64,000 nucleotides of DNA. Origin: Macrostomum lignano (lineage: Eukaryota). The stretch covers positions 1-64,000 of the forward strand of contig NIVC01002362.1 in the NCBI GenBank assembly GCA_002269645.1, in the 5' to 3' direction. The translations under genes and the position numbers were made by a program. This document shows, in pieces, positions 19,686-45,066 of this stretch. Under the pieces are notes generated by a model. It did no database searches and was not told the origin of the DNA. It worked only from the letters and a program-made list of their open reading frames with translations. Positions within the stretch are counted from its first letter, which is position 1, and every line of letters starts with the position of its first letter.

Positions 19686-19885
19686 TTGATGCGAGCTCAT
19701 ACTATGCTGGGGTAGACATTCAGAGGGGAACGAAAAACGAGAAGAAAATACTTTGTCTATGGCAGTCGCGAGTCGATAGGAAAGAACGGGGGAGGGGGGG
19801 GGAGGATGTTAAAAGTTGAGATTGAGCGAGATAAAAATAACTGGCTCAGATTAGCACTCCATTCTATTCTTTCCGCCATGGATCA
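19686..19885 (+). repeat. About 200-bp dispersed direct repeat, copy A (diverged partner at 43921-44125)
   Basis: Shared blocks include GATGCGAGCT..TACTATGCTG, AAAATACTTTGTC.ATGGCAGTC.CGAG and GAGCGAGATAAAAATAACTGGCT.AGATTAGCA.TCCA. Confidence 0.85.
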
Positions 19886-20099
19886 GACACCAAGGCCTGT
19901 ACAAAATCGGTCTCAGCTAGACCTATTTGCCATAGATATAAGAATTTGTATCTCGCGTTTTTACTGTTATTTTAAATTGACAAACCTTATACGGAATTCT
20001 TTCTTCCTTTTTTTGCATATTCTTTGTTCGTAACCTAACTGCTATAAGCATAGAAATTTAGAAATTTATTTATATTATATTATTATATTAGTCAACATA

Positions 20100-20183
20100 A
20101 TGGCCGACAATCACCGTAGCGACAACGCGGCGTGTCCTGTTTGCGCACAGTTGTTTAGTCAGCGGAGTATGGCGCGTCATCTA
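20100..20183 (+). CDS. Possible first micro-exon encoding half of a C2H2-like zinc finger (MADNHRSDNAACPVCAQLFSQRSMARHL)
   Basis: ATG at 20100, CxxC...F...H pattern, GTAAGA donor at 20184. No downstream exon identified. Confidence 0.3.
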
Positions 20184-21120
20184 GTAAGACTAGTAAGAAT
20201 AGATTTTGAATTTGAGTTTTGGAACTCAGGGCATACAGGCAAAAAAAAAATAGAAAAATTCACATAAGCGACACTATATGAATGTATCTATTATTATTTA
20301 TTTATTTATTTATTTATTACATAGTATAAACATAGATAAGCCTAGTATTCTATGGCCTAGGCATATCTTATATGCCTATAATGGCTAAATAGGCATAATT
20401 GGCAACAATAATTGGCCGCGTCATTGAGTCCTTCTATAATACAGTTCTGGCTAAGGTCATTCAATGACCTGGCCGGCCTGATGCAAATGTAGATGTCGAC
20501 GCAGGCATCCACGCCGTCCTCATAACGATAGCAGCATATTCCATAATCTATATTCCATATTCCGCGTCATTGAGTCCTTCTATTATGCAGTTCTGGCTAA
20601 GGTCATTCAATGTCGGCGCAGGTATCCACGCCGTCCTCATAGCAGTAGCGGCATGCATAGTACTCCTCCAGATCGATAGCAGAATATTCCATTATAATAT
20701 ATATTTTATATTACAGAATCCATATTCCATAGTACTTCCGATCGGTTAGCGTTCAGGTGGCTGTCCACTTCATGTTCCATGAGCTGCGCACCACCAAGTA
20801 GCCTTGCGTTGTATTCATAACTGACGCCCCAATTAGTCGCTTGTGCGCCCGCTATGCTACCTGATTTACATACATCCGTTCCCAATCTGGTAATTGCCGG
20901 TCTTGATTGTTAAGACTGTTTGCGATAAATATGAAGAATATAATAGATAAATGATAAATTTGTAGGTTTGTAGCACTCCACCAGATTGGCTCGCCGTTCA
21001 AGGATCGGATGCTGGCCATAATGCCTGGCCGGCCTGATGCAAATGTAGATGTCGGCGCAGGCATCCACGCCGTCCTCATAATGGTAGCGGCATAGCAGCT
21101 ATAGTATAGCACAACAATTT

Positions 21121-21270
21121 CCATTTGGGGTGGCCGGCGCTGGTTGCACCCATGCATTCTATTTGGTGTGGCCAGCGCTGGTTAAATTTACGCATTATGT
21201 TGAGGGTGGCCAGCGCTGGCTGCATTGATGCATTCTATTTGGGGTGGCCAGCGCTGGCTACATTTATTCA
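21121..21270 (+). repeat. About 39-bp tandem repeat (GGGGTGGCCAGCGCTGGCTGCATT...), about 4 copies; the same unit recurs at 23040-23150
   Basis: Read directly at both sites. Confidence 0.85.
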
Positions 21271-21374
21271 TAATGTTGGGAGCGCCCGACTGTAGCGAGC
21301 AAGCCGAATGACTGTCAGCTTGGATCCAATGAGTATAATATTATATACATTGGTTTCTGCAATAGAGATCTGTA

Positions 21375-22057
21375 TATATTTGTGATATCCTTGTTAATTC
21401 CATGTTAATTAGGGTAGGGAACAAATCAATATAGTTGTTATAGCCAACGAAACTATGGCTGGTCCATGATCAGTTCTGCGAATTTGTGCACTTATATAAT
21501 GTGCATATATTTGTGTTATCCTTGTTAATTAGGGCAGGGAATAAATCAATATAGTTGTTATAGCCAATGAAACTATGGCTGGTCCATGATCAGTTCTGCG
21601 AATTTGTGCACTTATATAATGTGCATATATTTGTGTTATCCTTGTTAATTAGGACAGTGAACAAACCACTAGAGTTGTTACAGCCAATGAAACTATGGCT
21701 GGTCCATGATTAGCTCTGCGAATTTGTGCACTTATATAATGTGCATATATTTGTGTTATCCTTGTTAATTAGGACAGTGAACAAACCACTAGAGTTGTTA
21801 CAGCCAATGAAACTATGGCTGGTCCATCATCAGCTCTGCGAATTTGTGCACTTATATACTGTGCATATATTTGTGTTATCCTTGTTAATTAGGGCAGGGA
21901 ATAAATCAATATAGTTGTTATAGCCAATGAAACTATGGCTGGTCCATGATCAGTTCTGCGAATTTGTGCACTTATATACTGTGCATATATTTGTGTTATA
22001 CTTGTTAATTAGGGCAGGGAATAAATCAATATAGTTGTTACAGCCAATGAAACTATA
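21375..22057 (+). repeat. 120-bp tandem repeat, about 5.5 copies
   Basis: TTGTGCACTTATA recurs at 21484, 21604, 21724, 21844 and 21964. Confidence 0.95.
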
Positions 22058-22314
22058 GAATATTAAATTGATTGTCGATGCACATCCAGTATGTCGGATC
22101 CGTTGTCAAACCAATGCGATGGTCATATGCGCTGTAGCAGTCTTGTCGGAAAGTCTCAATAGAAAATATGTCATACATTGACATAGATTACCTTTGTAAC
22201 AAATAGCATAAAATAAAATAAAATAGATAATATATAGGTAGATAGATAGACATTTCAATATGGTCAAAAAACTTGTCAGCTAAACAGATTGCTGGAAGCC
22301 AATCCAATCGATCA

Positions 22315-22829
22315 CTATTGCTGCTGCTGCTGCTGTTGCTGCTGCGGCTGCTGCTGCTTGGCGGTGTGCCATGCCCACAACTCCGTCCACCAGACGCAAC
22401 CAGCGGTGCCGGTAGACTCTGACTCATCCACAACCAGGCAGCCCTGCTCGATCAGCGACTCAGCGAAGTCGACCCCGGCAGCATCGCAGAGGGCCACTCG
22501 CCAGACCTCCGCCTCGTCAGTAGCAGAGCGTCCGGTTTCAACAGTCATCAGCCTGACTGTCCATTCCCGGCCGTCGTTGGCTCAGAGAGCGGCGCAGAGA
22601 GTCTGTGAGTGCGATGCGGCGAAGGCGTCGGCGGTGCGCACGAGCGTCAGGCGGCATGCGTGGGCGAACGGCGCCAGAGGCGGCGACTGCAGCTCGGCGG
22701 GCAGAGGCGCCAGCTCGGAAGTTGCGGTGGCTTCGTCATTGCAGAAGTCAACGAAGCGCACAGTGAGGTTGCGACTGCCGGCCGGGTCGGTACAGTGTGT
22801 GACGGTACCATTGACCGTAATGGGAAAAT
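22315..22829 (-). pseudogene. Extended Tudor domain (TDRD-like) terminal exon with one in-frame TGA at 22582-22584
   Basis: CAG acceptor at 22832-22830. LTVRFVDFCNDEATATSELAPLPAELQSPPLAPFAHACRL matches the Tudor V.FVDYGN.E....L..LP..L..P..A..C.L pattern. After the TGA the same frame continues to VALCDAAGVDFAESLIEQG (SN-fold end), then poly-Q and a stop. Confidence 0.7.
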
Positions 22830-22841
22830 CTGACCGCGAAC

Positions 22842-22842
<1 letters not shown>

Positions 22843-22917
<75 letters not shown>
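22843..22917. repeat. (CA)n microsatellite
   Basis: Read directly. Confidence 0.97.
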
Positions 22918-22920
<3 letters not shown>

Positions 22921-23849
22921 TCGTTTGAGTCTCTGAGCTGAAGTTTCAGCCTGTGACAATACAATAGCCTCTGACTTCAAATTCCAAGTCCAATTCAGAA
23001 GTCCAATATCGCTGGCTGACTGGCTGGTTAAACTTGTGCATTATGTTGGGTGTGGCCAGCGTTGGCTGCATTTACGCATTATGTTGGGGGTGGCCAGCGC
23101 TGGCTGCATTTATGCATTCTCTTTGGGGGTGGCCAGCGCTGGCTGCATCTTTGAGGTGGTATTTTGTATTTATTATATGTGGATTGAAATCGTAACATGC
23201 ATTCATTCAATGTAGCCTTCCAGGTATAACCACATTATCTGTGTAATGTTTATCATAATTAATATCGTTAGTATAAATGTATATTCTTCGCGAATATACA
23301 ACTATAAATTTTAAGGACATTTGTATATAAATTAGCATTTGCATAAATTAGCATAAATAAGGACATTTGTATATAAAATTTGTAAATAACTACACACACT
23401 ATGGCACACAATTTCCAACTTGATTCAACTTGACTGGATTCAATGCAAACAGTAGGTCGATTCCTTTTATTATTGTTGTCGATATATTTAGTGTTATTTA
23501 TCATTTATCGAGACGTGCATAACATAATGCTCACCGTTTCCTTAATTTTTCATACATCTCTTAATGCGGAGAAAAATGATTCATAGACACGAAAACATTG
23601 CCAATCTATCTTTCATTGGTCGATCGATTGCAATTGCACTTGCATTGGCTACTGTTGTCAGCTTACAAAGAGGAATACTCGACAATCCAACTGAGTGCCA
23701 TCGATCAATGTGCAACACCGGACAAAGAGTCCGGACTAACCATAATAGACACACAAAGACGTATACGATTTTTATATGTTTGAAATTTACATTATAACAA
23801 TAAATTAACGCACAATTTACACTTCAGCTACAATCGGACAAGTCGTTCT

Positions 23850-24172
23850 ATAAGGTCAGTTCTGCAGTCCGAGGCCCTGGCCCGTCCTAGCGATCTGCTG
23901 CGCCGTCGGCGACTCCAGCTGTCAGGCCACGTCATCCGCGCCGAGGCCTACTGTCCGGAGCCGGTGCAGGCGGTGTTGCTACTTACGTTGCAAGCACCAT
24001 ACACACGGGGACAGACGAGGACTCGGCGCTATGTCGACTGTCTGATGGCTGACGCCGGCGCCCCGGACTCTGTCGGCGGTGCGGCCTGTGTTCGCGCCCA
24101 AGTTTCGAAGCGCGCCATCTGACGCTGATTTTGCGAACTGGCAGCGTACTCTGTTGTTGTTATGTTGTTGTT
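23850..24172 (+). mobile_element. 5'-truncated 3' end of the same RTE-like non-LTR family with a (TGT)n tail
   Basis: Hand translation gives RRRLQLSGHVIRAEAYCPEPVQAVLLLTLQAPYTRGQTRTRRYVDCLMADAG. Homologous to 13829-14110. Confidence 0.7.
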
Positions 24173-24410
24173 AATCACGCAGGAAATCGATAATTACACG
24201 ATCGTCTGGCCGAACTACATATTCGAAATCGCCTAATTCAACTCATTAATTATACAAACGCATCCGAATGTATTTCGAGCATTTCAATGTTTTTTTATTT
24301 GAATGTTTACGCGTTACAGACCAACAGTTTATCTACAAGACAGTCGGTTAATCGAACTGTCTATCCATCAGACTATACGTCATCGTGTCTGTATGTCTGT
24401 CTGTATGCCT

Positions 24411-24412
24411 AG

Positions 24413-24490
<78 letters not shown>

Positions 24491-24512
24491 GTCTGTCTGT
24501 CTATCTGTCTAT
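24411..24512. repeat. (TATC)n / (GTCT)n microsatellite
   Basis: Read directly. Confidence 0.93.
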
Positions 24513-25129
24513 CTAAGTTTCTTCATTTGTATCGCTACCAAAGAAACCAAAGAAACTTTAGGCTGCACGGCAACTGCTATCCGTCAACTAGGCCTCTCAT
24601 TCTAGCAACATCAGCATCAGGCGCTGCGCGATGGTGTAGCGATACCCCACACCATCTCACGCCAAGTCTTAGATCGAGGTTGTTTTTTTTTCTACAGCTC
24701 AGTCGCTCATTCTAACAGCAACAACAACAGACGCTGCGCGCGATGGTGTAGCGTTACGCCACGTCCCATGCCCACTCACAGTCTATTGCGCTCTCACGCG
24801 TGCCAGCGAGTCAGCTTGGTGACAATTCTCTCCAAATCGATAATTGCTTCTCACGTTTCACCAACAGGCTGCAGTCGGTGGCGGCAAAGGCGGCAAATCC
24901 GCTACAAATAAATCCATTGGAATATATATCATACTAAGCATCAGTGAATCGATACAATACTTGTTATTGCTGCTAGTGCGTTGCTACTGCGATTCCACGA
25001 CCTCGATACTGTAAACATAGTCACACGATTCGTTTGTTTACACAGTATACTACTTGCAGTTTATCCACGCAGAGTTTCCAAGATATCACACCGCGGTTCC
25101 CCATACAGATTAGTATGAAGAAGAAGATT

Positions 25130-25349
25130 CATCCCCCAGATAGTAAGCATCCCCCAGATAGTAAGCATCCCCCAGATAGTAAGCATCCCCCAGATAGTAA
25201 GCATCCCCCAGATAGTAAGCACCCCCCAGATGGTAAGCATCCCCCAGATAGCAAGCACCCCCCAGATAGTAGGCATCCCCAGATAGTAGGCATCCCTCAT
25301 ACAGCAGGCATCCCCAGATAGTAGGCATCCCTCATACAGCAGGCATCCT
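25130..25349 (+). repeat. 18-bp tandem array GCATCCCCCAGATAGTAA, about 12 copies, part of the left inverted-repeat arm
   Basis: Read directly. Related to 1-430 and to the reverse complement of 30580-30654. Confidence 0.92.
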
Positions 25350-25369
25350 AATAGAGAAAAAAAAATTTA

Positions 25370-25437
25370 TGCGAAAAATTTTCTAAGTCAAAATAATTTT
25401 GACACTTAGAGAAATTTCACATTTCTCGAGAGAGCGC
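25370..25437 (+). repeat. Left arm of a near-perfect 65-bp inverted repeat (partner 30154-30224) containing an internal hairpin CTAAGTCAAAA-TAA-TTTTGACACTTAG
   Basis: The reverse complement of GCGAAAAATTTTCTAAGTC...CACATTTCTCGAGAGAGCG matches 30154-30224. Confidence 0.9.
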
Positions 25438-25581
25438 AGCGGTACCCCAGAAAAAAAACTCGGCTGTGACAGGTAAGTGGTTGGGTTGGGGTTGTGAATA
25501 ATGATAGTGATAGGTAGGTAGATTGGGTGGGTTAGTTAGTTAGTTAGTCAGTTAGTCAATCGGTATGCTATATGAGTACTA

Positions 25582-27859
25582 CACCATTTTACCCTCGCTT
25601 TTGAACAAACTCCGTTTCACTTTAGACAGTCGGAACTTCAGTTTAGACACTTTTAGACTGGAGCCCCGAATCTACATTCACTATCGACAAACTCCGTTTC
25701 AGTATCGACAGCTAAGCTTTGTGGTGCTACACTTCTATCTATTTACATAGGCAAGTACGGAAACGCACATCCAGATCTAGGCGAAACTCCCTTTCACTTT
25801 CGACAAACGCCACTTCTCCTTAAACAGTCTATGGTCTAAGCTGCTGAAACTCCGTTTCACTTTAGTCAACCAACATTCAAGATAGACAAGATACATTCAC
25901 TTTAGACAGATTCTTAGATGCGTCATTTGTTTACGCCTAGTGTTGGCTGAAAGAGGGGTTTTGACCATAGATACCTTTTAAGACACCCTTTTCGCCCCTT
26001 TGAACAGTGTGGGGTGGCAGGGTCGCCGGCCAGACCTTCCGAACTTCCGAACCAAAGTCTCAGCCTACTCTCTCTTCGCTCCAAACACTGAAGCCTATTC
26101 GCTAAAGATATTCGCTAAAGCAAGCCCTGAAAAAGATGGAGGACAGTGAAGATTCGTACCTAGAAGAGGAGCCTGGTTACGAAGACGAAAGTGAAAGCGA
26201 CTTTGAAGAGGAGGCTCCAGCGCAACAGCGACAGCCAGTGAGCAACCATGACAGGCAGCGACTTCTCTCCGCTTACCAGAAGGGCGAAGATTTTATCCTA
26301 CTGGCCTCTCAACTTGGCATCAAGAGAACGACCGCATATTCCATTGTGAGGAATGGATGAGTAGAGAAGCTTTCGTGCGGCGGAGCCAAGAACGTGAAGT
26401 GGGATGGTGAGATGCAAGAATATTTGTGCGCAATCATGGAGCAGAATCCATTGCTGACTCTGAAAGTGATGAACACCCTGCTCAGACAAGCTTTTCCTGA
26501 GAAGCAGCATGTCTCAGAAAAGACACTGAGCATAAAACTCGACGGTGCACTGTTCACAACGAAGCTGGCACGAGATCTTCCAGCTGAGCGCAACTCGCCA
26601 AGGGTTGTAGCCGCTCGTGAGCAATTTGCTCAGTGGATGTGCTCGCCCGAAGCATCTGACACAGAAGATCTTTATTGACGAGTTTGGCTTCAACACATGG
26701 ATGCGGCGATCCTATGGACGATCTCTTCGTGGACAGCACGTGTACCGACAAGTTTCTGGACAGAAGGGACAGCGCATCACCGTCTGCCTGGCAGTAAGCC
26801 CGGCTGCTGGAATCGTGCACTTCCAGTCATACGACAGCGGCATGACAAAGGAGAGATTCGGCGAGTTTCTCACAATCACAATCGCCGACTTCCACAGCGT
26901 GTTTCCAGACAGTAGCATCAGTGTTGTCATAGACAACGTCAGCAGCCACAATGACGCCGAAATCTACGAGGTCGAAGACGCTGTAAAAGTGAGATGACTG
27001 CCACCCTACAGTCCATTTCTCACCCCAGTTGACAACGCGATATCATGCTGGAAGGCGGCTCTGAAGCGTCGACTGTCGGCGATCCAAGATTCCTTCATCA
27101 GGCCGACCGAGCAGCAGCTTGCTGGTCGCAGCCTGGCGGCGTACCGCCGAGACATTCTACTCCGTGAGGTGGACGGCACCGCCGACTGCATCACTCCAGA
27201 GAAGGTGGCACGGTGGCTCAGCCGTTGCTTCAGGTATCTGCCACGGTGCTTGGCGTCTCAGCCAATTGATGGCTAATGGAAATCAGAACCCATCGCTGAA
27301 CTATCGCTTCGCTTCTGCTGGCTTTGCCGTTTTAATCACGACGCTGTTAAACAAACATTTTTCGGAACAGTCCTGCATTCTCAAATGCCTTTTAAATTAG
27401 GCCGCCAAACTAACTTTTTATTGATAAAAAATCCTCTTTGCACGCCATCTTCCGTTACAATGAAAGTTTTTATCCTTGAAAATTTCCATGAACATGCTTA
27501 ATAAACCTTTGCACACCTCCCGTGTGAGTTCATGTCTAAAGTGAATGTATCTTGTCTATCTTGAATGTTGGTTGACTAAAGTGAAACGGAGTTTCAGCAG
27601 CTTAGACCATAGACTGTTTAAGGAGAAGTGGCGTTTGTCGAAAGTGAAAGGGAGTTTCGCCTAGATCTGGATGTGCGTTTCCGTACTTGCCTATGTAAAT
27701 AGATAGAAGTGTAGCACCACAAAGCTTAGCTGTCGATACTGAAACGGAGTTTGTCGATAGTGAATGTAGATTCGGGGCTCCAGTCTAAAAGTGTCTAAAC
27801 TGAAGTTCCGACTGTCTAAAGTGAAACGGAGTTTGTTCAAAAGCGAGGGTAAAATGGTG
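25582..27859 (+). mobile_element. IS630/Tc1/mariner-superfamily DNA transposon, 2278 bp, 327-bp TIRs (25582-25908 and 27533-27859), TA target-site duplication
   Basis: The TIRs appear identical by eye. TA flanks at 25580-25581 and 27860-27861. The empty site GAGTAC-TA-CTAGTG is at 29081-29094. Each TIR has four AAACTCC(G/C)TTTCA direct repeats. Confidence 0.95.
26136..27276 (+). pseudogene. Disrupted IS630/Tc1-like transposase (HTH plus DDE-type domain)
   Basis: N-terminal HTH region (LASQLGIKRTTAYSIV). Catalytic motifs IFIDE, VVIDN and LPPYSPFLTPVD. In-frame TGA at 26358 and 26995, plus a frameshift near 26660. Confidence 0.9.
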
Positions 27860-28926
27860 TACTAGTGTTTATTGTTTAGTCAGTCAGACAGTCAGCCAGC
27901 CAGCCAGCCAGCCGGTTGGTTTGATTAACAGCAGCAGTATTAGAAGAAGCAGAAGAGACAAACATAAACTATCTAACATAGATAGATAGATAGATTACCA
28001 TAGACTAAAGTACTAACTAGTGTCGGTTAGCATCCATTTGTCTATCCATCCCTCCATTCAAACAAAGTGATGGATGTAGGGGTAAGAGATATCGATTCTA
28101 TTATTAGCAACTGTTACTATAATTGGCTACAAGATTTTAGCTCTCCATTCGTTATTATGTGTGTGTCTGTCTATTTATAGATGGTTGTTACCATATGTAG
28201 CCGACTAATATATATATTTATAGATGGTTGCTACTATATATAGCCGACTAATATATATTTATAGATGATTTTTACTATATATAGCCGCGTTAGTCTATTT
28301 ATATCGCTTTATTACTATAAATAGCGTTTATGTTACTAATTATGGATGTTGTTACTAAAAATATAATTGCATACTCGTCCCTAAGAGATATAGAGACGAA
28401 TTGATGATATATACGATAGGTTAGACACATAGACAACTAGTAGTAAATATTAGCGAGTGTAGCTATAGTCAGTCAGCGGTCTATATCTCTTAGGGACGAG
28501 TATGCAATTATATTTTTAGTAACAACATCCATAATTAGTAACATAGACTACTAATTATAGTAATTAAGCGATATAAATAGACTAACGCGGCTATATATAG
28601 TAAAAACCATCTATAAATATATAATAGTCGGCTATATATAGTAGCAACCATCTATAAATATATATATTAGTCGGCTATATATAGTAATAACCATCTATAA
28701 ATATGATGATGACCATGCTGATGCCGATGACCGTTTGTACTGTCTATTTATAGTAACATAAACAATATTTATAGTAACAATATCCTAACTCTAACCCTAA
28801 CCCTAGTTTAATATAAATAGTAACATAAACGCTATTTATAGTAACAATACCCTAACCATAACAATACCCTAACAATACACTAACCCTAACCCTAACCCTA
28901 ACTAACCCTAGTTTAATTCTTGGGGA

Positions 28927-30154
28927 CATTTCTCGAGAGAGCGCAGCGGTACCCCAGAAAAAAAACTCGGCTGTGACAGGTAAGTGGTTGGGTTGGGGTT
29001 GTGAATAATGATAGTGATAGGTAGGTAGATTGGGTGGGTTAGTTAGTTAGTTAGTCAGTTAGTCAATCGGTATGCTATATGAGTACTACTAGTGTTTATT
29101 GTTTAGTCAGTCAGACAGTCAGCCAGCCAGCCAGCCAGCCGGTTGGTTTGATTAACAGCAGCAGTATTAGAAGAAGCAGAAGAGACAAACATAAACTATC
29201 TAACATAGATAGATAGATAGATTACCATAGACTAAAGTACTAACTAGTGTCGGTTAGCATCCATTTGTCTATCCATCCCTCCATTCAAACAAAGTGATGG
29301 ATGTAGGGGTAAGAGATATCGATTCTATTATTAGCAACTGTTACTATAATTGGCTACAAGATTTTAGCTCTCCATTCGTTATTATGTGTGTGTCTGTCTA
29401 TTTATAGATGGTTGTTACCATATGTAGCCGACTAATATATATATTTATAGATGGTTGCTACTATATATAGCCGACTAATATATATTTATAGATGATTTTT
29501 ACTATATATAGCCGCGTTAGTCTATTTATATCGCTTTATTACTATAAATAGCGTTTATGTTACTAATTATGGATGTTGTTACTAAAAATATAATTGCATA
29601 CTCGTCCCTAAGAGATATAGAGACGAATTGATGATATATACGATAGGTTAGACACATAGACAACTAGTAGTAAATATTAGCGAGTGTAGCTATAGTCAGT
29701 CAGCGGTCTATATCTCTTAGGGACGAGTATGCAATTATATTTTTAGTAACAACATCCATAATTAGTAACATAGACTACTAATTATAGTAATTAAGCGATA
29801 TAAATAGACTAACGCGGCTATATATAGTAAAAACCATCTATAAATATATAATAGTCGGCTATATATAGTAGCAACCATCTATAAATATATATATTAGTCG
29901 GCTATATATAGTAATAACCATCTATAAATATGATGATGACCATGCTGATGCCGATGACCGTTTGTACTGTCTATTTATAGTAACATAAACAATATTTATA
30001 GTAACAATATCCTAACTCTAACCCTAACCCTAGTTTAATATAAATAGTAACATAAACGCTATTTATAGTAACAATACCCTAACCATAACAATACCCTAAC
30101 AATACACTAACCCTAACCCTAACCCTAACTAACCCTAGTTTAATTCTTGGGGAC
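28927..30154 (+). repeat. Copy 2 (uninterrupted) of the 1227-bp unit: G-rich start, internal 223-bp-arm inverted repeat (29399-29621 / 29707-29930), CCCTAA-like repeats at the end
   Basis: Read directly. The same hairpin lies at 28172-28394 / 28480-28703 in copy 1. Confidence 0.93.
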
Positions 30155-30810
30155 GCTCTCGAGAAATGTGAAATTTCTCTAAGTGTCAAAATTATTTTGA
30201 CTTAGAAAATTTTCGCGCCGAAAAAATTTTTTTTATTTCATTTCGTCTATCTAATAAAACGTATGCTGCTGTTTGCCCAAACTGTCTCACGGCCAATCTG
30301 TCTTCGGAAAGTGCATATAGATTTCTTGGAAAATCTGTCTGGGGAACATCATGTTGGTTTCTATTGTCTGCCAGTCAGTCAGTCAGTCTGTCTGTCTGTC
30401 TGTCTGTCTATCTGTCTGTCTGTCTGTCTGTCTGTCTCAGGATTGTCCCATCGCACTGCCATTATGTCCAATAAAAGTGCATTCAGTTTTCTTGGAAAAT
30501 ATTTCTGGGGAAAGCGCAAACTGTAACTAACTCCCCAGACACTAACTCTAACCCTAACACTGGGGTGTTCAGCAGTGTTCTGGGGAATGCTTGCTGTCTG
30601 GGGAATGCTTGCTATCTGGGGTGGATGCTTGCTATCGGGGGGATGCTTGCTGTCTTTCTTTACTCCCCAACGAAATGGAAAGCCTGACATTTCTATCTTG
30701 GAAAATCTGCCTGAGGAAACCGCAAACTGTCCCTTCTCCGCTAATCCGTCTTTGGGAATATCAAGTTGATTTCTTTCTATGATAATCTGTCCGGGGAAAC
30801 CGCAAACTAG
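30154..30810 (-). repeat. Right inverted-repeat arm: 65-bp terminal block, four copies of a TCTTGGAAAATCTGTCTGGGGAAACCGCAAACT-like motif, (GTCT)n, and the inverted 17/18-bp array (30580-30654)
   Basis: Motif copies at about 30324, 30490, 30696 and 30785. Reverse-complement counterparts at 25057-25111. Confidence 0.8.
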
Positions 30811-31358: not shown

Positions 31359-31800
31359 ATGCAACGGCAGCCTACTGACAACAACGTTACCGGTTGCGGA
31401 GATGGTGCTACGCGATCTATACCGAATCGACTAGTCACCATCGTAAACAACCTGTGGTCAACGGTAATGTCGTTTGTATCAGATACATCGACCAACAGCA
31501 ATGTACAACAAGATGCTGCTATCGAGTTGTGCAATACGGCTGCCGGTTTTGATGTAGATGCCGCTGCAGTCAGTGCTGTTGCTGCTGCGCCTGCTGCTGC
31601 TGCTGCTGCTGCCGATGCTGTTGCTGCTGCGCCTGCTGCTGCTGCTGCGCCTGCTGCTGCTGCTGCTGCTGCCGATGCTGCTGCTGCGCCTGCTGCTGCT
31701 GTTGTTGCTGCTGCTGTTGTTGCTGCCGATGCTGCTGCTGCTGCTGCTGCTGTTGCTGCCGATGCTGCTGCTGCGCCTGCTGCTGCTGTTGTTGCTGCCG

Positions 31801-31838
<38 letters not shown>

Positions 31839-34800
31839 GATGCTGCCGCTGCTGCTGATGCTGCTGCTGCCGATGCTGAACCGTCTACAGTGCCAAAGTC
31901 GCATACTCCTACGCCTGATTTGTCCGCTCATACACCGGTTGTGTGGCGTGACAGCACCATCGACGAGGACGATTATGCGAATGGAATTGTTGCCACCTTT
32001 TCTCCGGCTGCATCATTCTCGACTGGCGATCTCATTGGCGAGTTTTGTCGAGCATCGACTCCAAAACAATCGTCAGCCGCGGCGAATGACTTACTCAACG
32101 CGTCTATCTCGTCAGTCAACAGTCAGCTGTTATTCTGCAATGACGATGAGTTTATGCGCGATGTAGAACCGACAGCCAATAATGGCAACAAAAGTGAGTA
32201 GAAAACAACTATATTTTATCAATATATCTAAGCTTAACTAATTCGAATGATTGATAGACGCAAGTCTGTTATACATGAGCGTTTGAACTGACTGACTGAT
32301 TGATTGATTGATTGATTGTTTGTTTGCTTGGTTTGTTGAATGAAAGGATTAAATTGTATAAATTAGTGTCTTTTTTTTAACAAATAATTATCACAGGGCC
32401 GAGTGTTCAAGATGGCGCGTCGTTTGCTTCACCGACTAGCAAACCAAGTTGTAAAAGGCGACGTCAACAGCTAATGCGCTCCGACTGCGAACTTGTATCG
32501 GATGCATCTTCGTCATCACAGTTGTCGAGCGCAAAGCCGTCGCCCTATCAACGACACACTGGACAATCGCCAGACGATGCGCGGCGATCTGATGCGTCCA
32601 GTACAATAGGCGCGCCCAATCATCGGACGACCATAGCATCAGCCCGTAGATCGAGTCGGACGAGATTGACCAGCAACAGCGACTCTGGCAGTTCTGTTAG
32701 CTCGCATACGATCGATCGTATCCGGTCACACGTATTGTCACGCCATGCGTCTGTCTCGATTGCGGCGGCAACAGCGGCAAATTCGATGACAACGAAAGAC
32801 AGGGCGTTTGCTGCGATACGAGCGAAGTGTTATGCGAGGGCCAAATGTGTACAGTCGCCATCAACAGTATGTGCGTCACGGGCTGTACCATATGCGATAC
32901 ATGGTTTGGATGCGGCTGCGACGACTATCGATGCGGCGAATGATGTGGCGGCGTCGGCGGCGTCGTCGACGGCTAATTTGGCAGCGAACATGGCACAGGC
33001 TGCTGCGTCGTCGACGGCTAATTTGGCAGCGAACATGGCACCGACTGATGCGGCGGCGGCGGCGGCGGCGGCGTCTGCGACGGCGTCGGTTGTGGATGAC
33101 TTATCGTCAATCAGTAGTCAATCGCTGACTGATGCAGCCAATCTAGCCGCAAACGCCGCCGCGTATGCCAATAGAAACGCGCGTCCGACTGTCCCACGGG
33201 ATGTACAATCCGGATATGCACTGGCCTCCGGACCAATACATTTCCATAGAAATCAAGACGTCGAACCACTCAACGCGTTTTCAAGAGACGATCGTCACGT
33301 GCTCAGCATAAAGCGGATACACCACATTGTGGAATTGTCCGGTGTGCTTGATGCCGACCAACTGAAAGTACGTCTCTATATAGCACTGCGCGGTCGAAGT
33401 AATGCGCTTGTTGTCGCCAATCTAACCGGAAATTCGCCCAACATGCTGGATGACGATGAGATGATTCATAAGGCGCTTAATCGTCACAGGCAATCGAAGC
33501 ATGGGGCCGTGGACAGTCTGGATTATAACTGGTGTGGAGTTACGCTGTACATACAAACACCCAGCAGCATTACCGGCTACCAGTTATATAACATCATTCA
33601 CCAGATACTGTCTACTGATCCGAATATCCGGTATTTAGTAAGCGACAACGATTGCCGAATCATCATCGCTGGCGTCCGACAGGTCAAGAATGCGTTGGTC
33701 TCAGTTACACGGCACGACGGCGGCGCCATGCTACGTAATGTAAATATGTCCGATTGTAGCATGCTCGTGTCGGCGTATCATTGGATTGAAAATCATAGCG
33801 AGCTAGTAGTCACACCAGATCCGGAGGACGATTTTCTGATGCATCACGTGACGTGCAAGCACGAGCTAACTCGTCTTTTTCAGCGCGTACAGAAAATTCG
33901 TCGATTCAATCTAGAGCGTCTCATTGGTTGTGCGTGCTGTGCTCATTTTATAAATCTGCATACGCGCGATCGTACCATCAACGACGTCTCTATTGGCAAC
34001 AACAACCAATCGACGACTGGTGTAGACAACAATCAGTCCAATGAAAGCGAGACTAACGCCACTAATCCGACTAATGCTGCTGATGCTGCTGCCGACGCCG
34101 CCTTTGTCGCCGATAACGCCGCCGCCGCCGCCGCAGCCGTTGCCGCCGACTCAACTGCCGCTGTACGAGTCGACAGACCGCTGGACGAACGACGACGCGG
34201 ATGTCCAACGATGCGAGCCGTGTGCGCAGCTCTCCGCCAATGTAAAGGTGTGGTGTACCTATGGGGGCCGCCTGGTGTTGGCAAAACTCATAGCGTAGCT
34301 GCGCACTGCGGTGAAACTCGTGTTGTCAATATAGTCCCGTCACGAACTACAGCCAACACGTTTTTATTCGATCCGTTGGACATCGCTGTACATCGCGTCA
34401 TGTTCATCGACGAGGTTCGACCAGAGCTGTTCGATTCAAAGTCTGACGCTATGGTGAGTAAATTAGTACATAATTGTTGATTGTTGATAATAAATTATGC
34501 AAATTTATGTAATTTATCAATATTGTTGATATTGATTTATGTTAATGTTTATTGTCCATCGTGCAGGTTCCGCTCCTACGGTTGATCAATGGAGACACCT
34601 TCAATGTCAACCAGAAGTATCAATCGATAGTGAGTCACCATTGGCGAGACAGACTACTCGTCCTGGCTGGTCACGACCCTGTGAATGCGTACAGCCCCGA
34701 TGTAAAAAGACGTCTTCGGCATGGGCTCACATTGCAAGGTCGACTCGTCTCGGTGCTGCACGTTGGGCATCCGCTATATGGGACGTACGACTGTGACGGG

Positions 34801-34848
34801 ACGTGCGAGCCTGTACGAGATCTAACAGGTGATCCCATACGCGATTGA
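31359..34848 (+). CDS. Three-exon gene (31359-32193, 32397-34453, 34567-34848; 1057 aa) for a parvovirus NS1/Rep-like superfamily-3 helicase protein with a long Ala/Ser-rich N-terminus
   Basis: Both introns are GTGAGT...CAG and restore the frame (phase 1 and phase 0); total 3174 nt. Walker A GPPGVGKT (34265-34288), FLFD..., Walker B MFIDE, B' LLRLINGDTFNVNQKY, motif C-like LLVLAGH, Arg-finger-like KRRL. Confidence 0.8.
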
Positions 34849-35483: not shown

Positions 35484-35917
35484 GACTGACTGTTAAAACT
35501 GGAAAATTGATTGAGATAAACCAACTGACATCTGTATATTAATTAGTAAGTAGGGAAAAAATCACAATGTTTTATATGTTGCTTCTGCCATTTTTTAATC
35601 GTTTGTACATATGTATATATATATATATTATTTATTTATTTATGTGATTATATTTTTGCTCGTGGTTTGTACATATTATTGTATCCATAGTTGATTGGTT
35701 GACTTTGTTTCAAAGTGGTCAATTTGTTGTTTTGTTAAATACTTGTATGTGTACAGTGCATGCCGTTACCGTTATGCATACGTTATAAAATTTGTTTGTA
35801 TAATATTTAAGTGGTTTATTGACCAATATTCCGTTGCTGGTTGTTGGTGCCAAAACTTTGTCCAAGACATCCACACACACACACAAATTCATATGGGTCA
35901 ATGTTTTAGTCATGGCC

Positions 35918-37547
35918 GGTCACATCACCATTCAATTTGGTCACATCACCAATCAGCCTGGGTCTCATCACCAGTCAGCCTCGGTCACATCACCATTCAA
36001 CTCGGTCACATCACCAGTCAGTCGGGTCACATCACCAGTCAGTCTGGTCACATCACCAGTCAGTCGGTCTGTTCATATCACCAGTCAACTCAGTCACATC
36101 ACCAGTCAGTTGGGTCATATCACCAGTCAACTCGGTCACATCACCAGTCAACTCGGTCACATCACCAGTCAGTCTGGTCACATCACCAGTCAGTCGGTCT
36201 GTTCATATCACCAGTCAACTCGGTCACATCACCAGTCAACGCTGTCACATCACCAGTCAACTCGGTCACACCACCAGTCAGTTGGGTCACATCATCAGTC
36301 AGTCTGGTCGCATCACCAGTCAGTCGGTCTGGTCATATCACCAGTCAACTCGGTCACATCACCAATCAACTCGGTCACATCACCAGTCAACTCGATCACA
36401 TCACCAGTCAGTTGGGTCATATCACCATTCAACTCGGTCACATCACCAGTCAGTCGGGTCACATCACCAGTCAGTCTGGTCACATCACCAGTCAGTCGGT
36501 CTGTTCATATCACCAGTCAACTCAGTCACATCACCAGTCAGTTGGGTCATATCACCATTCAACTCGGTCACATCACCAGTCAGTCGGGTCACATCACCAG
36601 TCAACTCGGTCACATCACCAGTCAGTCGGTCTGGTCATATCACCAGTCAACTCGGTCACATCACCAGTCAACTCGGTCACATCACCAGTCAACTCGGTCA
36701 CACCACCAGTCAGTTGGGTCACATCATCAGTCAGTCAGGTCACATCACCAGTCAGTCGGGTCACATCACCAGTCAACTCAGTCACATCACCAGTCAGTCG
36801 GTCTGGTCATATCACCAATCAACTCGGTCACATCACCAGTCAATTCGGTCACATCACCAGTCAGTCGGATCACATCACCAGTCAACTCGGTCACATCACC
36901 AGTCAACTCGGTCACATCACCATTCAACTCGGTCACATCACCAGTCAGTCGGGTCACATCACCATTCAACTCGGTCACATCACCAGTCAACTCGGTCACA
37001 TCACCAGTCAACTCGGTCACATCACCAGTCAACTCGGTCACATCACCAGTCAGTCGGGTCACATCACCAGTCAACTCGGTCACATCACCAGTCAACTCGG
37101 TCACATCACCAGTCAACTCTGTCACATCACCAGTCAACTCGGTCACATCACCATTCAACTGGGTCACATCACCATTCAACTTGGTCACATCACCATTCAA
37201 CTTGGTCACATCACCAGTCAACTCGGTCACATCACCAGTCAACTCGGTCACATCACCAGTCAACTCGGTCACATCACCAGTCAGTCGGGTCACATCACCC
37301 GTCAACTCGGTCACATCACCAGTCAACTCGGTCACATCACCAGTCAACTCGGTCACATCACCAGTCAACTCGGTCACATCACCAGTCAACTCGGTCACAT
37401 CACCAGTCAGTCGGGTCACATCACCCGTCAACTCGGTCACATCACCAGTCAACTCGGTCACATCACCAGTCAACTCGGTCACATCACCAGTCAATTCGGT
37501 CACATCACCAGTCAACTCGGTCACATCACCAGTCAGTCGGGTCATAT
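35918..37547 (+). repeat. 21-bp minisatellite GGTCACATCACCAGTCAACTC / ...AGTCAGTCG, about 75 copies
   Basis: Read directly. It explains ORFs 35695, 35819, 35937 and 36787. Confidence 0.96.
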
Positions 37548-39476: not shown

Positions 39477-39508
<32 letters not shown>

Positions 39509-39535: not shown

Positions 39536-39675
39536 TTGATGCTATGCGCGGTGATTTCGTATGCTTTTGTACAATCTGTACAATCAACCGGCTGTGGCGT
39601 CTGCATCGTTTGTTGCTACTGTCACTTTGGCCTGTACTACGTCTAGACATTCGACTGACTGACTGACTGTATTGA

Positions 39676-41271
39676 CTATAATCTATTGATATATGGCTCA
39701 ACTGCGCCAATAGTTCGGCGTATATGTCCAATTTCTATGCGTCGCATCGGTCGCTCGGCGCGAATCAGGCTAACAATATGAGCAGTCCCGTGTGTGACAA
39801 CCCATTGACAGACTAGTGCTCGACTAATCGTATATTTCTGCGTATTGATAGACCCGACTGCGTCGGCAATAGCAAACTTGCCAGAAATATCGTTGACTTG
39901 CTTGTTGAGCAATAATTTTGCTGGCGCATATTCTATATATTCAAATGTGTGTAGACCTTCAAATCGGCTCTCCTCCGGCTGGTTGTCCGCTGTCGTTTTG
40001 ATCTGCTGCGCACTGCGTCGTTTCCATGTATCATACAGACCCGTCCATTGTATATTCGTCCGTATATCTTCAAATCTTCAAACAATTCGCGACCGCCAGT
40101 CCATATATGCCAGCCGGTGATCGTAGTGACAGGGCGCTGGCACGCGAATCGCGCCTACCGAACTGCGCCGTGTTCTGCGCGACTGCTCCGAATGTCAGGT
40201 GACCCGACGGTGCTGCGGTTTGGCTCCGGTCCAGCGCGTCGTCGTGTGTACTGTTGACGACGACACATCGCGACTGACCGGCTGTCCAACCCGCGGACGG
40301 TTTCGACACCTGACAATTTGCGACCGCCAGTCCGTGTATGCCAGTCTGTGGTCGTAGTGGCAGGGCGCTGGAACACGTATAGTGCCTGCTGTACTGCGCC
40401 GTGTTGTGTGCGACCGCTCCAAGTGTCAGGTGACCCGACGGTGCTGCGGTTTGGCTCCGGTCCAGCGCGTCGTCGTGTGTACTGTTGACGACGACACATC
40501 GCGACCGACCGGCTGTCCAACCCGCGGACGGTTTCGACACCTGACAATTTGCGACCGCCAGTCCGTGTATGCCAGTCTGTGGTCGTAGTGGCAGGGCGCT
40601 GGAACACGTATAGTGCCTGCTGTACTGCGCCGTGTTGTGTGCGACCGCTCCAATTGTCAGGTGACCCGACGGTGCTGCGGTTTGGCTCCGGTCCAGCGCG
40701 TCGTCGTGTGTACTGTTGACGACGACACATCGCGACCGACCGGCTGTCCAACCCGCGGACGGTTTCGACACCTGACAGTTGCGACCGCCAATCCGTATAT
40801 GCCAGTCCGTGGTCATAATGACATGGCGCTGGCACACGTATCGTGCCTGCTGATCTAGGTAGACCAGTCTGTGATCGTACCGACACGTCGCTGTTGTCGG
40901 CCGTCTACTCATTCAAACGCATAGGCCTTCAAATCGGCCCGTATACAATTGACTGTCCAAATTCCTGCATATCGCATTGATCGCTCGGTACGAAATCTGC
41001 CTAACAATATGAGCAATCCTGTGAGTGACAACCCCATTGACAGACTGCATCTCGTATATGGTTCTGCTATAAAAAAATATTCATCCGCTCTGGTATGCCT
41101 AGTAACCCCAAATATTCGTCGTATATTTCTATATATCGATAAACCCGGCTGTGTTGGCAATAGCAAACTTAATATTGATATTTGTGGATGAGTTTTTTGG
41201 TAGAATCGTTTTTTTATAGTTATTGTTTTATTCAAGTTTGATATAACAAACCCGTAAGCTTGTCGTTCCAT
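39676..41271 (-). pseudogene. Degenerate repeat-built coding region: two diverged copies of one block (39676-39960 and 40915-41170) flanking about 3.5 copies of a 231-bp (77-codon) tandem unit (about 40085-40850)
   Basis: ATG at 41271 with GTATATAA about 40 bp upstream. KFAIA...QWVVTH and RFEGL motifs occur in both block copies. Frameshifts and stops are present. Confidence 0.4.
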
Positions 41272-42014
41272 CCGGATTTGTTTCTTTTGTCTGCCTATTG
41301 TGGGACAATATTATATACTCTAACCAATATATTAATCAGTGTAATTAATAATGTTATCCTCTTGTTGTATATTCGAAGCGAGGTGCATGCTTTCTTTATA
41401 TTATAACAATATTTTGAATAAGTTTTCATAGTTTCACTTTGGTCTCACGCGCTCTGTCTTGTATTCTCGTATCGGCCAGCCAGCCAGTCTGCCAGCCAAC
41501 CAGATCTCGCAAATAAACATGCAAAGCTACAAACAAACAAACAAACAAACAAACAAACAAACGATGTTAGACTCGTTTTTCCACGAATGTTAATGAATTA
41601 ATCAAATATATATATATATATATGGATTGGAATTGTTTATTAGAATTTATTGAATTCATAAACTTCGTACGAGTATTTAATAATCAACGGGATATAGTGT
41701 ATAGATAGTGTATAGTGGTTAGTGAGGGAGATGGAGATAGAGAGAGTGGATATATGTGCAGAAAAGAAGCTCGATTGATTGGAGATGTGATAGTACGAGG
41801 CACTCGTTATAGACGCGGACAGGAATATATAATATATAGACTCGCATATCCAGACTCACTACTCAGATAGTTGTATTGATCGGTAGCTACCATTAAGATA
41901 ATGGATGACTAGAACTGTAGATGGACAACGAAATGCATGCATGCACACATGTATACACGCACACAGTCAACGATGAGGGGAAAGACACGATATGCATACT
42001 ATGTATGTAGAAAC

Positions 42015-42430
42015 GGGACAGTGAATGAGCGAACGAGTGAGTGAATGAGTGAGTGAGTGAATGGACGAGTGAGTCAGTGAGTGAGAGAGAAGTGAGCGAG
42101 TGAGTGAGTGAGTGATTGAGCGAGTATGTGAGTGAATGGATGAGTGAGTGAGTGAGCGAGTGATTGAATGAGTGAGTGGGTGAGTGGTGAGTAGGTGTGT
42201 GAGTGGTGAGTAAGTGAGTGAGTGAGTGAGTGAGTGAGTGAGTGATGAGTGAGTGATTGAGTGAGTGAGTGAATGAGTGAGTAAATGACGAGTGGTTGAG
42301 TGAATGAGTGAGTGTGTGAGTAATTGAGTGAGTGAGTGTGTGAGTGAGTGATTGAGTGGGTGAGTGAGTGAGTGATTGCGTGAGTGAGTGGGTGAGTGAG
42401 TGATTGAGTGAGTGGGTGAATGATTGATAG
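42015..42430. repeat. Imperfect (GAGT)n microsatellite
   Basis: Read directly. It explains the HSLT-repeat ORF 41893-42471. Confidence 0.93.
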
Positions 42431-42746
42431 ATACGGGCAGAAATATTTAGATCGAGCGACATTCGATGCAAAATAGAACAGCTCTTCGGATAGAAATTAT
42501 AAACTATAAAAAGTACTGATCGGTTAAAAAGTAGTCGATAGAGATTTGTACATTTCTATCGCAGACAATTCTGCGTAGAAAGAAACGAGATTTGCCATAA
42601 ACAATTGTATTATGGAACCGGTTGCGACTAGACAAGGCAGATGATTTATAGCAATAGTCTGTTTCAATCAAGATAAATAATCGCATTAGACAACTATCTG
42701 TTAAAAATCGACATCATCAAGCAATCAATCAGTCAATCAACCAACC

Positions 42747-42775
42747 ATGTCCGAGTCCAACAAAGAGCAACAACA

Positions 42776-42808
<33 letters not shown>

Positions 42809-43628
42809 TCGGCAGCAGCAACAGCAGCAACATCTGCAAGAGTCGCGCACTGCTGACCATCATCTAGTCTGGGCAGACGACATCACAGACGCTGATTTGG
42901 TGGCTGCGTGTGTATCTGTTGAAGAACAACAGCATACAACGCAGCAAACACAGATGATGGCGTCTGTATCGTATGCCGGGACCAGACGCGCCGTGTCAGC
43001 GATGCATTCGGCAGGCATCGACTGGGCTGAACAGCTCGACGAAGCAATGCGCTGGTTAGACGGCGATTTGTATGCAGCAAACGCGATTGTGACCGACGTT
43101 GCTGCGACATCGATGCCGTCTAACTCGCGTAAGCGGCGTCATTCGTGCATCGGCCAAGCTATGGACGTCGATGCTGATGCCGATGTCGACACCCTGTTCG
43201 ACTCAGATACGCTGGCAGAGTGCGACGCACTAGAAACAGCTTATTATGCTTCTATGTGCAATGCCGCCAGTGACAACGTCGAACAGTCGCCGACTGATGC
43301 GACTACAGATCACGCAAATGCGGCCGCCGCTGATGATATGTACATATCAGACGCGGAACTTGTTGCCGTATGCGAAGAGGTCGAGGCGACTGTCCATCTG
43401 AGCGCCATCGATCAATGTGCACCACCGGACGAAGCGTTGGCTAGCCCAATTAGTCAAGTCGACCCGTCCGCGTCGCTGTACGACTCCGATGGCAATATGC
43501 TAGAGGAGTCCAGCTTTGCCGTTGATCGGCGGTCAGTCGCCTGCCAGGTAAACATGTGTCGACCTCGATGCAATCGCACCTGGACTCGACTGTACCGTAG
43601 ATGGCGTTCTCGTCGATCCACCAACTAG
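42747..43628 (+). CDS. Orphan acidic protein (293 aa, or first exon if the CAG|GTAAAC donor at 43548 is used) with N-terminal poly-Q and repeated D..D[AS][DE]L..[AV]C..[VL]E motifs
   Basis: Long ORF that is mostly non-repetitive, with ATG in an A/C-rich context. A 41-bp segment is homologous to 23687-23727. Confidence 0.55.
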
Positions 43629-43920
43629 ATAATTGGATAGTTGGTTGGATTGATGGTCTCTCGATCCAGTACAGTCACACGCGCCTACTGTAGTCTGCTG
43701 CTGATCCTGACCGGGCCGTGAATCTGGTTGAATGATTGATTGATTGATTGATTGCTTGACTGTTTAATTATTAACTAACTATTTCATAATGTATGAACTT
43801 AAATATTAGATAAGTTTAACTTATTGAAGTTATATAAGTCAATATTAAGTCAATAAGTTATATAAGTTTAACGACTATTATTGAGTTTAGTCCATGGAGG
43901 AAAGAATAGTATACTTTGAT

Positions 43921-44125
43921 TGATGCGAGCTTCTACTATGCTGAGGCATACCTTTTAGAGTGGAACGAAATGGGAAACGAGATGAAAAATACTTTGTCGA
44001 TGGCAGTCACGAGCCAAACAGAAAAAACGTGAGGGGACTGGATATTACGTAAAAGTGAAGATCGAGCGAGATAAAAATAACTGGCTTAGATTAGCAATCC
44101 ACTCTATTATTTCCTCCATGGTTCA
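43921..44125 (+). repeat. About 200-bp dispersed direct repeat, copy B
   Basis: Homologous to 19686-19885. Confidence 0.85.
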
Positions 44126-44356
44126 GTCTATCAGTGTTAGTGATTTCATAACATTAGATATTGATTGTTGACGTTGTTTATGCATTACATATGTAAATAT
44201 GAATATCGTTTTCTGTTTTACATTAGATGGTTGGAATGATTCGTCCCTATGAGGAAAATGAAGATTAAAAGAATGAATGAGAATGAGATTGGCAATTATA
44301 ATGCGACTGAGACTGCTTGAGAGTGCAACATATTGAAAGTGATTATGGGAGACTAT

Positions 44357-45066
44357 ACCAGTCTGGTCACATCACCATTCAACTGGGTCACATCACCAGT
44401 CAGTCGGTCACATCACCAGTCATCTCGGTCACATCACCAGTCAGTCGGGTCACATCACCAGTCAACTCGGTCACATCACCAGTCAGTCGGGTCACATCAC
44501 CAGTCAACTCGGTCACATCACCAGTCAGTCGGGTCACATCACCGGTTAACTCGGTCACATCACAAGTCAACTTGGTCACATCACAAGTCAACTCGGTCAC
44601 ATCACCAGTCAGTCGGGTCACATCACCAGTCAACTCGGTCACATCACCAGTCAACTCGGTCACATCACCAGTCAACTCGGTCACATCACCAGTCAACTCG
44701 GTCACATCACCAGTTAACTTGGTCACATCACCAGTCAGTCGGGTCACATCACCAGTCAACTCGGTCACATCACCAGTCAGTCGGGTCACATCACCAGTCA
44801 ACTCGGTCACATCACCAGTCAGTCGGGTCACATCACCAGTCAACATGGTCACATCACCAGTCAGTCAGGTCACATCACCAATCAACTCGGTCACATCACC
44901 AGTCAGTCGGGTCACATCACCAGTCAGTCGGGTCACATCACCAGTCAACTCGGTCACATCACCAGTCAGTCGGGTCACATCACCAATCAACTCGGTCACA
45001 TCACTAGTCAATGCAGTCACATCACCAGTCACCACAGTCACATCACCAGTCACCAATCATCACCAG
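44357..45066 (+). repeat. Second array of the same 21-bp minisatellite, about 33 copies, same orientation
   Basis: Read directly. Confidence 0.96.

Follow-up and report, generated by a model that had tools for sequence, protein, structure and literature searches.

A 27,958-bp element in Macrostomum lignano from a family likely to move as a recombinase-released, helicase-copied circle

The window analyzed here, 64,000 nucleotides of contig NIVC01002362.1 (positions 1 to 64,000, forward strand) in assembly GCA_002269645.1 of the flatworm Macrostomum lignano, contains a mobile element with an intact gene for a predicted superfamily 3 (SF3) helicase, the cut-off start of a second gene, and a copy of the 6-bp core ACAAAA at either end. 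An initial annotation, made from the letters alone, had proposed a composite virus-like element between two 200-bp direct repeats (19686-45066); the interval does form part of a single mobile unit, but its true ends lie at 18414 and 46371. Complete relatives of this copy pair a predicted recombinase with a virus-type helicase, and the family therefore likely moves as a circle that is copied before reinsertion. The main features of the ends and genes are as follows.

18414-46371, plus strand: whole element, a non-autonomous copy of 27,958 bp; ends common to copies with differing flanks; two related empty sites
18414-18419, plus strand: left 6-bp core ACAAAA, at the start of every locus of L111-L126 that matched from its first base (13/13)
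18420-19403, plus strand: conserved left end with a 13/54/121-bp tandem array
20100-20190, plus strand: first 30 codons of the predicted recombinase gene (start of a C2H2-like finger); remainder deleted, and 9 bp duplicated at the breakpoint
31359-32193, 32397-34453 and 34567-34848, plus strand: exons of the predicted SF3 helicase gene, 1057 codons, no internal stop
45053-46365, plus strand: conserved right end
46366-46371, plus strand: right 6-bp core ACAAAA, the exact terminus in 19 of 30 right-end loci (14 distinct flanks)

Ends, copies and empty sites

The 764-Mb assembly contains duplicated haplotypes, and all counts are therefore of loci, not of independent insertions. A helicase query gave 57 genome matches, and eight regions were fetched and aligned to the window. 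Alignment of the flanks of these SF3 gene copies, a check that the initial annotation had suggested, revealed common ends at 18414 and 46371, and the copies carried the same neighbors as in the window. Copies co-linear with the window element, two each on C267 and C157 and others on C2367 and C2093, terminated at window position 46371 (one of them 12 bases short), and those having a left end began near 18414. The left core lay 19 nt further along in the remaining three loci of L111-L126, and the remaining right-end loci had a one-mismatch core (six) or broke off earlier (five); the background frequency of ACAAAA in the flanks was below 0.001 per position. No terminal inverted repeats were seen on the family elements examined, and the unit of the left-end array was an inverted relative of bases 15-60 of the element's left end. 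Copies in clade I, to which the window copy belongs, ranged from 5.5 to 45 kb in length; a gene-less subfamily (C172, C1045, C1387 and C1597; L141-L144) of 5.5-6.9 kb kept the left end, an inner segment that we call the hub (described below), arrays and the right end.

Multiple empty sites bear on how insertion occurs. First, two loci related to the window locus (91-98% identical blocks) lacked the whole 27,958 bp and joined the flanks via one core. Second, the C172 copy had an empty allele on C2697 that was 100% identical over 300 bp and contained a single ACAAAA. Third, the empty target and the right core of the C2093 copy read ACATAA and the left core ACAAAA, and for C1267, a copy from clade III, the exact target core was present in three of five loci, the right core matched the target and the left core was of the element type. 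Cores divided in this way between target type and element type would not be the product of a filled-in staggered cut; differing cores, one usually matching the target and the other the element, are as expected for recombination. Separately from these empty sites, C267 contains two copies head to tail in an integrated tandem with a single core at the joint.

In regions C157:498558-590000 and C2093:68939-139151, family members are clustered in nested, tandem and inverted arrangements. One of the target sites there falls within element sequence, and among the extra cargo open reading frames (ORFs) of the clusters is a second zinc-finger paralogue that has no recombinase domain.

The helicase gene and its recombinase partner

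The SF3/NS1-like gene recognized in the initial annotation is present (ORF 32381-34480), and a frame check joined ORFs 31341 and 32381 and a third exon into one gene. Both GT..AG introns were skipped in contigs of public runs X1 and X2, and the first intron also in X19, these runs coming from three studies; the splice joint was absent from contigs of run X15, and no public run is on record as RNA. The transcripts may come from the window copy or from near-identical copies. Ratios of nonsynonymous to synonymous substitution rates (dN/dS) were 0.18-0.40 (six pairs). The helicase gene in the window copy is intact, appears spliced in contigs of public runs and is under purifying selection.

The protein contains the motifs GPPGVGKT, FIDE, KYQ, LAGH and RR, which we take to be Walker A, B, B', C and the arginine finger; its motif C (LAGH) lacks the usual Asn. 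A clade II homologue was modeled, with the pieces from the window aligned to it (predicted local distance difference test, pLDDT, 67.2). Foldseek matches of this model among viral proteins were nearly all NS1 or Rep, with parvovirus NS1 and CRESS Rep best (E 1.9e-8); in the VIA-align ranking, SV40 T antigen and circovirus Rep were interspersed with other AAA+ proteins. On this modeling, the protein is predicted to have an SF3 fold. The N-terminal domain, taken within the full model (pLDDT about 34-62 there), gave no fold match, and an HUH motif (His-x-His, Tyr) was not visible in alignments A2/A3, nor was there a Rep Pfam match. Sequence searches with the helicase found five proteins, three of them from environmental records that lack context, and no locus emerged when viral and metagenome contigs were scanned. 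UniRef entry P0002 joins a helicase fragment to a G-protein-coupled receptor (GPCR) model.

What the initial annotation called a zinc-finger micro-exon is not an exon. It is the truncated start of the recombinase gene, which breaks off at 20190; residues 100-132 of P0011 and the C2093 sibling both match this start at 100% identity. Relatives that share the ends of the window copy have, just inside the left end, a gene of three exons whose product begins with C2H2-like fingers. The deletion of this gene makes the window copy non-autonomous. The earlier remark that no capsid, polymerase or integrase gene was recognized still applies to capsid and polymerase, but not to integrase at the level of the family, in which a tyrosine recombinase is predicted that has been lost here.

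Several results point to this assignment. An AlphaFold model of the core, built from an alignment of 13 sequences, had a pLDDT of 72.6 and a predicted template-modeling score of 0.71. The best 12 Foldseek matches in the PDB were all tyrosine recombinases (XerA, probability 1.00, E 0.011), as were most matches in a viral Foldseek search, and the first 17 VIA-align matches were recombinases, their relatives or topoisomerase IB (17/17), the best having Z 9.2 and a root-mean-square deviation of 3.5 over 163 aligned residues; fold matches included XerA, integrase and Cre. Plausible catalytic residues (Arg, His-Lys, Arg and Tyr) are retained in the alignment. dN/dS was 0.17-0.27 (four pairs). The family is thus predicted to encode a protein with a tyrosine recombinase fold, outside every Pfam family. 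DUF3504, Phage_integrase and GCR1_C profiles did not match it, and PF11917 (DUF3435) had no match in 13 recombinase cores (E<=1) or five long proteins (E<=10).

Sequence searches for recombinase relatives outside this species (longer lengths, phages, PDB sequences and PHROGs) found none, returning two same-species records. ESM Atlas look-alikes fell in chordate and arthropod clusters (0.95-0.96) and in Starship DUF3435 clusters (0.90-0.91), a resemblance that we treat as a lead only. UniRef entries P0006-P0012, which represent the recombinase, are labeled 'Ras-GEF domain' or 'C2H2-type', and misannotation of these entries and of P0002 may have hidden the family from view. A genome search with PF00589 recovered other recombinases, of which the ones close to helicase copies (C751 and C3828) looked Crypton-like and were excluded from the family.

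Distant recombinase matches adjoined distant helicase matches. Among 28 mapped regions, picked for having a match to one or other gene, 12 had both genes, six the recombinase only, eight the helicase only and two neither. The copies form three clades, with identities between clades of 18-29% for the recombinase and 21-49% for parts of the helicase, and trees of the two proteins from seven paired loci gave the same three groups. The recombinase gene occupies the 5' end in clade I and the other end, or a position downstream of the helicase, in clades II and III. Clade II copies are 8-10 kb long and end in imperfect repeats of ~7-8 bp containing ACAAA; clade III copies are 8 kb long and have an 8-bp core. 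The compact 8-kb copies have matched ends at both sides, and their ORFs of at least 115 aa gave no capsid, polymerase or HUH Pfam match. Apart from the recombinase gene, that of the helicase alone was found in all three clades. This pairing is old and is linked across three deeply diverged clades.

A Pfam scan covered 122 ORFs, drawn from the window together with parts of seven relatives, and found no capsid, polymerase, primase, packaging or HUH family and no match to RepHel, pPolB, DUF3723, FRE, PLP or NLR. Matches were limited to ATPase, zinc-finger, Tudor, low-complexity membrane and nested-transposon families; among the last, a true DUF3504 Crypton was detected at E 2e-24 and served as a positive control.

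Hub, cargo and passengers of the window copy

The remaining features of the window copy lie between these genes and the ends.

19612-19880, plus strand: high-copy fragment of a miniature inverted-repeat transposable element (MITE), the first '200-bp repeat'; a passenger
20197-25129, no strand assigned: left-arm cargo of short repeats, 38-bp and 120-bp arrays, a Tudor-like piece and a relic of the acidic ORF, common to the C228, C230 and C2093 copies
22582-22842, minus strand: Tudor-like coding piece, Pfam TUDOR E 1.9e-4, also in three relatives
25130-30655, no strand assigned: hub, in which inverted 18-bp arrays and arms flank a 1227-bp unit that is present twice
25582-27859, plus strand: nested Tc1/IS630-type DDE transposon (DDE_3, E 2.3e-11) with a TA duplication and a broken ORF, in this copy only
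35917-37535, with a second block at 44365-45052, no strand assigned: 21-bp tandem array, also in 6-kb copies
39536-42019, no strand assigned: cargo block with a 231-bp array
42747-43628, plus strand: acidic orphan ORF of 293 aa, seen here only in clade I copies, with homologues in siblings
43893-44120, plus strand: second MITE copy (the other '200-bp repeat'), with both terminal inverted repeats

Each 1227-bp unit of the hub contains a 530-bp hairpin (28172-28704 and 29399-29931) followed by telomere-like AACCCT runs (hairpin and runs together, 28172-28910 and 29399-30137); these hairpins are the palindromic junction that had been noticed earlier. The two units, a tandem duplication, were identical at 1046 of 1046 compared bases; they may have arisen very recently or reflect an error of assembly. 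Both this duplication and the Tc1/IS630-type transposon had been overlooked; the latter is young, has long perfect terminal inverted repeats and sits inside one of the two otherwise identical units. A genome search with the hairpin core found matches only in family copies and, once, ~4 kb from a family end. The hairpin loop was flipped in the C1387 copy, and adjoining segments were inverted in the C157 and C1045 copies. The hub is a normal inner part of single clade I copies, including the gene-less 6-kb ones. The relic of the acidic ORF, proposed earlier as a decayed homolog, is a 51-nt segment (23680-23730, 86%) on the same strand as the ORF itself. With the hub inside single copies and the relic on the same strand, the idea of two family members meeting at the junction is unsupported.

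The acidic ORF had no Pfam match and dN/dS values of 0.33 and 0.62; together with the Tudor piece, it is cargo of clade I. The predicted Tudor exon corresponds to a real Tudor-like piece that falls below the Pfam cut-off (21.9 versus 23 bits) and is probably captured host sequence. Two sets of opposite-strand frames had also been proposed; neither looks like a kept gene, as the frames of the 231-bp array shift between copies and no frame of at least 120 aa exists at 20.3-21.2 kb. Arrays of 121, 120, 18, 21 and 231 bp were found as described, but the unit reported as 39 bp is 38 bp, and the 121-bp array lies left of the proposed start although inside the real element.

The 200-bp repeats are two diverged copies, 78% alike, as reported, yet they are internal MITE pieces and not the ends. 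A genome search with this sequence gave 290 first-look candidates, 40 of which were scored, and at 4 of 4 unrelated loci the 200 bp lay inside a MITE-like element with terminal inverted repeats (~310 bp in three). The repeats are accordingly a high-copy transposable-element sequence, and the element nevertheless stands by its true ends.

Family copies elsewhere contain other nested elements: the DUF3504 Crypton on C283 (L289:5248-6372), a piggyBac-like DDE gene on C796 (L223:4916-5941) and another transposase-like ORF in the C228 copy (24188-26269). Just outside a clade III element, C957:92296-97714 (L232) contains Polinton-like genes, a packaging-ATPase-like and a capsid-like ORF recognized by eye. 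No GPCR gene lies inside the window element, as had been stated; GPCR-like ORFs occur outside it at 11514-13157 and from 47078 on. The latter (47078-48103, 52930-53934, 60197-61216 and 63703-63796) are tandem single-exon genes with 88-93% DNA identity, and the element ends ~0.7 kb from the first gene of this cluster. Dispersed repeats occur at 15656-15890 and 17852-18085 and at 13908-14086 and 23886-24064, the second pair having one member inside and one outside the element.

How the family may move

We consider it likely that 18414-46371 is a recombinase-less copy from a family whose elements excise as a circle and reinsert, with the helicase driving copying of the circle; for movement by the recombinase alone, the case is strong. 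The recombinase would join the two cores and so release the element as a circle, the helicase would open an origin, and host enzymes would copy the circle. Copies of the circle would reinsert at core-like genomic words, at times into a resident copy. Elements without one or both genes would move in trans, the window copy using the recombinase of another copy. Some of these steps have counterparts in the literature. Circle release by core joining has been reported for Starships (10.64898/2026.09.21.753150), a circular intermediate has been proposed for Cryptons (PMC3212892), movement in trans has been demonstrated for a Starship captain (PMC10104507), and repeats reflecting target and element cores have been described for Starships (PMC10104507) and Cryptons (PMC13465315).

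Several observations weigh against this reading. Neither a circle, nor excision, nor helicase activity was observed, and the single-core joint was seen only in the integrated C267 tandem, which could stem from unequal crossing-over or misassembly. The two empty sites of the window locus read ACAGAA (2/2), as opposed to ACAAAA in both filled cores, and at C1045 (two empty loci) the target was ACAAAA and the right core, ACAAGA, was the deviating one. No sequence profile named the recombinase (Pfam with 13 cores, PDB sequences and PHROGs), its fold scores were modest (no Foldseek E below 0.001, TM about 0.36-0.40), and the first Arg was missing in two clade II copies. Its putative active site is presumably atypical, with Ser/Thr and Thr/Asn at what we take to be the usual His positions. 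A contig bridging a recombinase intron was found in only one of four runs (X2, second intron); runs X1 and X19 had no contigs over the gene and are therefore uninformative on its splicing. VIA-align gave SF3 helicases and other AAA+ ATPases equal rank. Of the mapped regions, half (14/28) retain one gene of the pair only, and several regions are allelic duplicates, so that independent two-gene cases number fewer than 12; three matching groups cannot prove co-descent. Finally, the compact clades have no hub. Resolution of the hub by a protelomerase-type enzyme was considered and not adopted, as protelomerases ranked low (VIA-align Z about 4) and the hub is not universal.

The best-surviving alternative, which we judge unlikely, is a Crypton- or Starship-like recombinase transposon whose helicase, instead of replicating a circle, has long been kept as cargo or aids recombination, for instance through strand exchange or target access. 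In its favor, the ends of recombinase-only and gene-less copies are intact and their empty alleles recent, neither a nicking motif nor an origin was identified, and some clades have no hub. Against this, the helicase occurs in all three clades under purifying selection, and SF3 helicases otherwise serve small viruses and plasmids as initiators of replication.

We give still less credence to an endogenous DNA virus, either reduced or a satellite without a capsid, that integrates through its recombinase and either relies for packaging on a helper, for example the Polintons of this genome, or has an unrecognized capsid gene of its own. The helicase resembles parvovirus NS1 and CRESS Rep, crustacean nimaviruses integrate via C2H2-bearing recombinases (PMC10871703), a Polinton-like gene cluster adjoins the C957 copy, and the 45-kb copy has several orphan ORFs. 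However, 8-kb copies with both ends leave little space for virion genes, none of the 122 ORFs matched a capsid, polymerase or packaging family, the genes have spliceosomal introns, and the Polinton-like cluster is not common to the sister copy C1267.

A rolling-circle element (Helitron2/Helentron-like or NS1-driven), with the SF3 protein nicking at the terminal word, is very improbable. The head-to-tail tandem, T-rich ends on one strand, a captured exon and hairpins would suit it, but alignments A2/A3 and Pfam gave neither an HUH motif nor a Rep or RepHel match, insertion adds a whole extra core, the clade III 8-bp core is not a TT site, and the family includes a recombinase gene. That transposons and repeats piled up by chance has next to no probability: MITEs, the Tc1 element and many arrays are indeed passengers, but co-linear copies of 95-100% identity have the same ends at unrelated sites, and the clean empty sites refute it.

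Returning to the circle-copying family that we favor, the initial annotation was right that this is a large multi-copy family with an SF3 module and cargo that is not a Helitron, Polinton or Replitron. In contrast to Polintons and Polinton-like viruses, it has no Pfam match to a jelly-roll capsid, packaging ATPase or pPolB (122 ORFs) and no terminal inverted repeats. A recombinase and SF3 helicase pair does occur in prokaryotic P4-like satellites, in integrative plasmids and in Polinton-like viruses, with a proposed cycle of excision, replication and reintegration; the flatworm family differs in being nuclear, intron-bearing and animal, without recognized primase, polymerase or virion genes.

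Like Starships, the family has a 5' recombinase gene (in the window clade), variable cargo, direct repeats of target homology, nested insertions and, as we propose, movement in trans. It differs in lacking a DUF3435 profile match, in its animal host, constant SF3 helicase and size of 5.5-45 kb, and, in the compact clades, in where the recombinase gene lies (the opposite end, or downstream of the helicase). Starships are reported to be restricted to Dikarya (PMC10104507, PMC11162782). Cryptons share with it a tyrosine recombinase (predicted here), direct repeats of 6 bp at the termini, a lack of terminal inverted repeats, a proposed circle and occurrence in animals (PMC3212892, PMC13465315); by the 4-6-bp direct-repeat criterion for Cryptons, clade I repeats have 6 bp, and those of clades II and III are imperfect and have ~7-8 bp. 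Unlike Cryptons, the flatworm elements are larger, lack DUF3504, Phage_integrase and GCR1_C and have the SF3 helicase as a second core gene. The word helicase does not appear in four Starship and Crypton papers (PMC3212892, PMC10104507, PMC11162782, PMC13465315).

Recombinases of endogenous nimaviruses, compared by description only, also combine a C2H2 finger with a recombinase in an invertebrate genome and form a family distinct from DIRS, Enterprise and Crypton, but nimaviruses are large viruses with polymerase and capsid genes that target telomere repeats or ribosomal DNA (PMC10871703). Planarian PEVE/PIVE, Hydra DENSOV_HM and acorn-worm parvovirus-like repeats have NS1/E1-like helicases and hairpins but no recombinase in the description available; the acorn-worm element has a capsid ORF and PEVE is extrachromosomal, both unlike the flatworm family (PMC3198968). 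Literature searches, which covered sources other than Repbase, subscription journals and supplements, found no animal element with a recombinase and an SF3 helicase; a published 342-sequence recombinase tree (PMC10871703) and published Crypton lists (PMC3212892) could include relatives. The family would work like Cryptons and Starships, yet its proteins gave no match to their signature domains; what sets it apart is the constant SF3 helicase.

How copies are gained is an open question for cut-and-paste recombinase transposons, and a replication helicase kept in every lineage offers a direct, testable answer. Macrostomum lignano, a laboratory animal with RNA interference and many public runs, is suited to such tests. 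We can also imagine, with rather less confidence than we have in the circle-copying of this family, an undescribed animal superfamily of 'integrative replicons' extending well beyond this flatworm, with a Starship-like recombinase, a virus-derived SF3 helicase, free circles and cargo to 45 kb; the chordate and arthropod look-alikes of the recombinase would fit such a spread. If our reading is true, cargo-carrying recombinase elements, reported as fungal, would extend to animals, site-specific recombinases would gain a new family that uses 6-8-bp cores, and the replication proteins of small viruses would be linked to transposons.

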